From Escherichia phage vB_Eco-B1.1, in sequence record ON871820: a stretch of DNA of 64,000 nt. One strand, given 5' to 3'. The first letter of the stretch is position 1. Each line of letters begins with the position of its first letter. Shown one piece after another: positions 62,156-63,063 of this stretch. The position numbers were made by a program, and so were the translations under genes. Under the pieces are notes generated by a model. The model made no database searches and had not been told where the DNA came from. It saw nothing but the letters and a program-made list of their open reading frames with translations.

Positions 62156-62490
62156 TGAATTTAACTGATATAATTGATAATTGTCTTGAAAATGATACTG
62201 GCGATCATAGAGCGCTTGACTCTGAAACAGCACAGTTCATTAGAATAACTTTAATGAATGACACTCTAGTGAATAGTATTCATCCTTCTGTGTATGATGC
62301 TATTATTGTGACGAAGTACCCAGTTGAGCTTCACAAAAAGATGGTTGGCGCAATTTTTATTGATAAGAAAAACCGCTTTAAAGATGGGCAGAATATAATT
62401 AGTTCTGTTATTAAAAGTATAACTAAACTTCGTCACGAAATTTATCGTGTTGAAACTGCTAAATCTGCTTATCTGGTGATTATGAAATGA
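62152..62490 (+). CDS. hypothetical protein (112 aa)
   Basis: ATGA overlap with previous ORF. Confidence 0.5.
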   Translation: MMNLTDIIDNCLENDTGDHRALDSETAQFIRITLMNDTLVNSIHPSVYDAIIVTKYPVELHKKMVGAIFIDKKNRFKDGQNIISSVIKSITKLRHEIYRVETAKSAYLVIMK

Positions 62491-63063
62491 AAGCGAGTAC
62501 AGTACTTCAAATTGCATATTTAGTATCGCAAGAATCAAAATGTTGCTCCTGGAAGGTAGGAGCAGTAATTGAAAAGAATGGACGTATTATTTCTACCGGA
62601 TATAATGGTTCACCTGCCGGGGGTGTGAACTGTTGTGATTATGCTGCTGAGCAAGGTTGGTTGTTGAATAAGCCTAAACATACTATCATTCAAGGTCATA
62701 AGCCTGAATGTGTATCATTTGGTTCAACTGATCGTTTTGTCTTGGCGAAAGAACACCGTAGCGCGCACTCTGAATGGTCGTCTAAAAATGAAATTCATGC
62801 TGAACTAAATGCGATTTTGTTTGCTGCACGAAACGGTTCTTCAATTGAAGGTGCTACTATGTATGTAACACTTTCTCCTTGCCCAGATTGTGCAAAAGCG
62901 ATAGCTCAATCTGGTATTAAAAAGCTGGTTTATTACATACGATAAAAATAAACCTGGCTGGGATGATATTCTGCGAAATGCAAGTATTGAAGTGTTTAAT
63001 GTTCCTAAGAAAAACTTGAATAAGTTAAACTGGGAAAATATCAACGAATTCTGTGGTGAATAA
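62487..63063 (+). pseudogene. cd: dCMP deaminase (cd) interrupted by a frame change near 62932-62945
   Basis: Frame A (62487..62945) carries the HAE and PCxxC zinc motifs and ends at TAA; the +1 frame continues from about 62932 to TAA at 63061-63063, which overlaps the next start. Confidence 0.6.

Follow-up and report, generated by a model that had tools for sequence, protein, structure and literature searches.

The dCMP deaminase gene cd of Escherichia phage vB_Eco-B1.1 carries a 5-nt deletion that is private to this genome. The gene is thereby divided over two reading frames just behind the codons for its zinc-binding motifs. We consider it likely that the mutation is genuine, arose recently and abolishes the function of cd, which is dispensable. 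Overall, the feature is an ordinary one, in a gene that is well known.

Results

The analyzed window, a stretch of 64,000 nucleotides of the vB_Eco-B1.1 genome, derives from a Tequatrovirus (T4-like phage) and runs in the orientation opposite to the standard T4 map. Around cd the T4 gene order is kept (cd.2, cd.1, cd, 31.2, 31.1, 31). The cd interval (62487–63063, 577 nt) matched 501 phage records, 475 of them at 95–99 % identity. Many Tequatrovirus cd genes are 98–99 % identical in DNA to the window gene and share its flanking genes, so that orthology is given by sequence as well as by synteny. The following features, all on the plus strand, are discussed below.

62487–62945, plus strand: truncated cd ORF of 152 aa, comprising Cd residues 1–149 followed by Tyr-Ile-Arg, TAA stop at 62943–62945
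62923–62959, plus strand: inverted repeat AGCTGGTTTATT ... AATAAACC-T-GGCT (pair I8), seen on folding the window sequence and that of EPIMAM01
62934–62935, plus strand: deletion junction, 5 nt of the relatives (GTGAA or GCGAA) missing in the alignment with EPIMAM01 and ime09
62935–63063, plus strand: displaced authentic C-terminal segment, Thr152–Glu193 plus TAA, in the +1 frame, own usable start codon absent
62983, plus strand: private G>A (Gly168Ser), downstream of the frameshift in the dead segment
63063–63299, plus strand: gene 31.2, 78 aa, intact, with the exact protein in many Tequatrovirus genomes

A preliminary description of the locus had assigned the deaminase core with both motifs to a first frame (frame A) ending at 62943–62945, which agrees with the ORF list and the motifs. 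Frame A contains HAELNAI (H-A-E, with His104 and Glu106) and SPCPDCAKAI (P-C-x-x-C, with Cys132 and Cys135), and its protein ends in ...KKLVYYIR*. PF00383 matches it over residues 3–150 with 92.8 bits (cut-off 25), and the repaired protein obtains an equal score. In the +1 frame a TAG occupies 62902–62904; from 62905 on this frame is open, and it overlaps frame A over 62905–62942. Translation of 62926–63063 in this frame gives WFITYDKNKPGWDDILRNASIEVFNVPKKNLNKLNWENINEFCGE, starting with WFITYDKNKPGW and ending in ...NEFCGE. Its TAA at 63061–63063 overlaps the ATG of 31.2 (63063–63065), and the frame thus finishes at the TAATG junction with the next gene, as had been stated.

With the 193-aa Cd of FL33 as tblastn query against the window, residues 1–149 matched at 62487–62933 with 100 % identity in one frame and residues 152–193 at 62935–63060 with 95 % identity in the +1 frame. 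This match in two pieces points to homology of both frames and not to chance. The continuation had been placed at about 62932; the frame is indeed open at this position, but true homology resumes only at 62935 (Thr152), and the 'I' at 62932 is therefore an artefact of the junction.

The alignment with EPIMAM01 and ime09 contains a single gap, with otherwise identical flanks. The missing 5 nt are bases 2–3 of the Cys150 codon together with the Glu151 codon, by which TAT TGT GAA ACA TAC GAT (Tyr149–Asp154) is converted to TAT TAC ATA CGA TAA. The frames are split just after the zinc motifs, as described, but the underlying lesion is a 5-nt deletion and not a 1-nt shift, which also costs the protein Cys150 and Glu151. 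The earlier proposal, in which a small indel had moved the genuine C-terminus into the second frame, is supported by the orthologue alignment, which puts the deletion exactly there. After repair, the protein matches T4 Cd (PDB 1VQ2) over residues 1–193 (E = 1.5e-131) and differs from it solely by A65T, G168S and the engineered R115E of the crystal.

The deletion lies outside homopolymers and tandem repeats. It removed the first five loop bases adjoining the 5' arm of the inverted repeat listed above, whose 12-nt 5' arm pairs with 12 nt of the 13-nt 3' arm, leaving one bulged base. The same repeat is found in intact relatives. For the hairpin at 62923–62959 a folding energy of −13.1 kcal/mol was predicted (z = −2.1), compared to −13.7 kcal/mol (z = −1.8) for the equivalent in the intact gene of EPIMAM01. 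Simple slippage was rejected as cause of the deletion, since direct repeats flanking it are absent, as was quasipalindrome correction, since the sole nearby inverted repeat fails to predict the new sequence. A templated origin of the junction was rejected too, as TTATTACATA occurs once in the window.

To what extent the allele is shared was investigated in several collections. A junction query of 81 nt matched 461 phage records, none of them with more than 95 % identity, and none of the 461 shares the deletion. The 15 junction matches listed span 86 nt compared to the 81 nt of the query, and all 40 full-length cd matches listed span 582 nt compared to 577 nt. No match to the exact deleted junction was obtained in IMG/VR, JGI metagenome contigs or GTDB genomes; as positive control, three metagenome contigs contained the intact junction. 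The exact 152-aa protein was absent from a collection of about 15 billion proteins in which the neighboring Cd.1 and 31.2 proteins are present. An uninterrupted Cd of 181–193 aa with conserved C-terminus is encoded at 40 of the 42 Tevenvirinae cd loci in IMG/VR (61–99 % identity). The best 120 cluster representatives from a database of 5.8 billion proteins have lengths of 163–210 aa, save one fragment of 117 aa with a query coverage of 54 %, and a form of about 152 aa does not occur among these best 120 clusters. The arrangement that would have argued against a displaced C-terminus, in which a Cd of 152 aa precedes a small gene of its own, is thus not conserved in phage records, IMG/VR loci or protein clusters.

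The closest relative found locally, L048 (MAVG01000001.1, a contig of 167,572 nt), has an intact cd. It is 99.3 % identical to the window over 61000–63499 and 98.2 % identical over 52805–63499. The best complete phage records reach only about 95–96 % identity over 24 kb, which points towards a mosaic or otherwise unsampled genome.

Since PF00383 covers just residues 3–150, frame A resembles a complete deaminase core. The conservation of the lost segment was determined in an alignment of 46 homologues with 56–98 % identity. Tyr153 and Trp160 are invariant, Asp154, Ile163, Leu164, Val171 and Leu179 are conserved in at least 90 %, and Glu151 is conserved in 41 of the 46 sequences. For a full-length Cd with 99 % identity, the AlphaFold2 model (pLDDT 92.6) exhibits a strand at residues 146–151, a helix at 162–166 and a further strand at 170–173. 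Frame A stops within the first of these (strand 4), only the +1 frame codes for the helix and the last strand, and neither reading frame of the window cd holds the complete deaminase fold. All listed homologues but one 117-aa fragment retain the helix and the last strand. With its 163 aa, even the shortest natural homologue extends to the last core (IEV) strand, and the cyanophage enzyme 4p9c (138 aa) aligns through residue 171 and reaches the IEV strand as well. Judged from model and conservation, the 152-aa product is probably misfolded or inactive, because it lacks Tyr153 and Trp160, the conserved tail, and a helix and a last core strand that are kept even by the shortest homologue.

The private substitution at 62983 is the sole one in cd. 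A 35-mer with A at this position gave no matches, compared to 424 records for the same 35-mer with G. Of 46 diverse homologues, 41 have Gly at residue 168 and none has Ser. The exchange possibly reflects relaxed constraint in the dead segment after the lesion. Locally, three private SNPs were counted in 2151 covered positions, corresponding to a chance of about 17 % for one in the 126-nt dead segment. With this expectation and a single substitution, the argument from Gly168Ser is weak. The spectrum of differences private with respect to six relatives is balanced (23 GC>AT and 22 AT>GC) and shows no AT>GC bias. It consists largely of synonymous polymorphism brought in by unsampled lineages and is therefore uninformative on a mutator footprint of Cd loss. 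Such a balance would fit a recent lesion and gives no positive support for a long-term Cd deficiency.

Further private C>T exchanges were observed at 62037 (cd.2) and 63526 (31.1), in comparison with the 7–11 relatives covering these positions. The former affects a second codon position and replaces Thr by Ile in cd.2, as confirmed by script; the latter likewise affects a second codon position and is non-synonymous in 31.1 according to our own frame arithmetic, the script having assigned it to a spurious ORF on the minus strand. All three local private SNPs (62037, 62983 and 63526) are GC>AT transitions, in numbers too small to interpret.

Discussion

Of the three candidates that had been put forward for the split gene, a true pseudogene is favored, with a frame-disrupting 5-nt deletion in comparison to intact orthologues. 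Translation would leave the original frame after Tyr149 and end three codons later. The resulting 152-aa product would keep the zinc and catalytic motifs and break off inside beta-strand 4. Since cd is dispensable, the phage would stay viable without Cd. The dUMP required for thymidylate would still be supplied by UDP reduction and phage dCTPase/dUTPase, and by the host dCTP deaminase. These alternative dUMP sources belong to the established nucleotide metabolism of T4. In the tblastn comparison with FL33 ORFs, td, frd, nrdA, nrdB and the other shared window genes are not frame-split, so the alternative route from dUMP to dTMP appears intact. The upstream 149 codons exhibit no decay, their product being 100 % identical to FL33 Cd, and the lesion, if real, is therefore recent. 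In the list of Petrov et al., cd is a "Quasicore" gene of auxiliary metabolism (PMC2993671).

Altogether, two frame-split ORFs were found among 167 FL33 ORFs searched by tblastn against the 64-kb window, namely cd and goF. Both are non-essential, and neither lesion lies in a homopolymer. Differences private with respect to six relatives are mostly synonymous at third positions. Together with the low number of split ORFs, this makes the consensus look accurate. By its sequence signature the goF mutation, described at the end of this section, appears to be biological and not a platform error pattern, and we count it in favor of a real mutation in cd.

The strongest competing explanation, possible but clearly less likely, is that the phage possesses an intact 193-aa cd and that the deposited consensus wrongly leaves out 5 nt. 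A sequencing error in a homopolymer-poor region had been considered before; the lesion does lie outside homopolymers, but we rank this explanation below a true mutation. The deletion allele being a singleton across phage records, IMG/VR, JGI, GTDB and the protein look-up would fit an artefact, as would the complete identity of the 149 upstream codons to FL33 Cd, which is expected if the gene is intact. A second copy of the genome was looked for by exact look-ups of gp34, gp37 and the goF fragment in the protein collection, which gave no match. Additionally, both frame lesions of the window are located at inverted repeats, which can trouble polymerases and base-callers. However, a clean 5-nt deletion without homopolymer or tandem repeat is atypical of common platform errors, and homopolymer-type frameshifts amount to zero in the 167 ORFs. 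The mainly synonymous private differences again point to an accurate consensus, and the private Gly168Ser just downstream of the deletion speaks against an intact gene.

Similar to T4 Cd (dCMP deaminase, 193 aa, PDB 1VQ2), the window gene encodes the HAE and PCxxC motifs and is found in the neighborhood of cd.1 and of 31.2, 31.1 and 31. In contrast to T4 Cd, it exhibits the 5-nt deletion, loss of Cys150/Glu151, frameshifting of the last 42 codons, A65T and the private G168S. The enzyme turns dCMP into dUMP and has a part in setting the dTTP/hm-dCTP ratio; upon its loss a raised hm-dCTP/dTTP ratio is expected. The work of Sargent and Mathews in 1987 is said to have found cd-defective T4 viable, with imbalanced pools and altered mutation rates. 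Like the phage of the window, the laboratory cd− mutants of T4 are viable T-even phages that have lost this dispensable enzyme. They are, however, selected alleles with measured phenotypes, whereas the window allele is a singleton known from a genome record. Citing passages in PMC3458546 and PMC3045583 refer to infections with dCMP deaminase-defective T4 (Sargent and Mathews 1987).

Natural counterparts were found as well. The sequence L045 (IMGVR_UViG_2706796796_000001), from another T4-like genome, has a lineage-private cd frameshift about three codons downstream of the site in the window. It differs by being a 1-nt insertion (TATGACC to TATGGACC, locus ~1020–1035) and results in a 143-aa ORF ending in VYAELYGP*. 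In Escherichia phage vB_EcoM_005 (L044/P0155, a contig of 155,101 nt), unlike in the window, cd has an internal deletion of approximately residues 41–85, and its annotated protein of 210 aa includes 62 fused residues from upstream. This is probably another defective natural allele. Both lesions are sporadic and lineage-private, and neither is the 5-nt deletion of the window; they indicate that cd null alleles do turn up in sequenced isolates.

Two extensions of a real deletion, independent of each other, were considered and are very improbable: a partial rescue by a short ribosomal hop, or an adaptive value of cd loss, by which the dTTP-dependent activation of PrrC-type anticodon nucleases would be blunted. 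In the first, the peptidyl-tRNA-Tyr would leave TAC 62934–62936 at the slow, rare ATA and land on TAC 62938–62940. The hop would yield a low level of Cd reading ...LVYYDKNKPGW..., without Cys150-Glu151-Thr152 and with the authentic C-terminus kept. Concerning the second, phage-induced accumulation of dTTP stabilizes the PrrC anticodon nuclease (PMC3458546), and by way of speculation a Cd-null phage might for this reason be less sensitive to PrrC defense. The intact state of cd in essentially all related records argues against a common selection for its loss, and no report on cd as a defense trigger was found in the literature searched.

Just as little credence is given to a functional short Cd, or to a split enzyme of two genes in which the 152-aa core is joined by a separately translated C-terminal peptide. 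In its favor, PF00383 lies wholly within residues 3–150 with equal scores for the truncated and the repaired protein. However, no ATG, GTG or TTG start gives at least 25 aa in the C-terminal segment (plus strand, ending at 63063), and a separate C-terminal gene was rejected for this lack of a start codon. The short form is also at odds with the 163–210 aa of the best 120 cluster representatives (save the 117-aa fragment), with the retention of the helix and last strand in the shortest homologues and with a break that, according to the model, would fall inside strand 146–151.

Programmed recoding, either as a +1 shift or as a hop from TAC 62934–62936 to TAC 62938–62940 giving a near-full-length Cd without Cys-Glu-Thr, is the least probable explanation of all. 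It could draw on two identical Tyr codons at a distance of 4 nt, each in its proper frame, with the rare codons ATA and CGA and then a stop behind them, and on the hairpin predicted around the site (z = −2.1). T4 gene 60 is the classic example of translational bypassing, and the window superficially resembles it and the +1 frameshift of E. coli prfB in having two overlapping frames for one protein, a TAC...TAC pair and a nearby stop. In contrast to these known sites, neither a slippery codon of the CUU-U type nor a stop right after the take-off codon is present, the gap has 4 nt instead of 50 nt, the hairpin already exists in intact genes and the arrangement is not conserved. By inspection, the frame A codons GTT TAT TAC ATA CGA within the overlap (62905–62942) allow no +1 re-pairing of a tRNA. 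The equivalent hairpin in the intact EPIMAM01 gene speaks against a dedicated recoding signal. The product would moreover lack Glu151 with its conservation in 41 of 46 homologues, and the dead segment has a substitution at a conserved Gly. The previously suggested programmed frameshifting is therefore disfavored, as the two-frame arrangement occurs in no other genome searched and a slippery site is absent. Transcriptional slippage was rejected as well, the longest runs near the site being A5.

If the deletion is real, this T-even isolate has become Cd-null in nature or during passage. A ready strain would then be at hand for studies on the share of dCMP deaminase in dTTP supply, on a possible rise of AT>GC mutation upon its loss and on a possible weakening of dTTP-dependent defenses such as PrrC by lower dTTP accumulation. 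If the deletion is an artefact, it merely flags a correction of the genome record. Either way, the fitting annotation is 'cd, frameshifted/pseudogene' and not a 152-aa deaminase plus an unannotated gap.

The second broken gene of the window, goF/comC-alpha (21357–21774), encodes 139 aa in FL33 and is here split into ORFs of 52 aa and 84 aa. This allele is also private, with 28 matching records and none above 95 % identity. At the lesion (~21480–21525) the window exhibits a perfect 18-nt inverted repeat, AAAATTTTAATAGGACGC-CCAAGA-GCGTCCTATTAAAATTTT. In FL33 goF the palindrome is imperfect and its loop is found in reverse complement (TCTTGG). Altogether the goF lesion carries the signature of a quasipalindrome template switch with a net loss of 2 nt.
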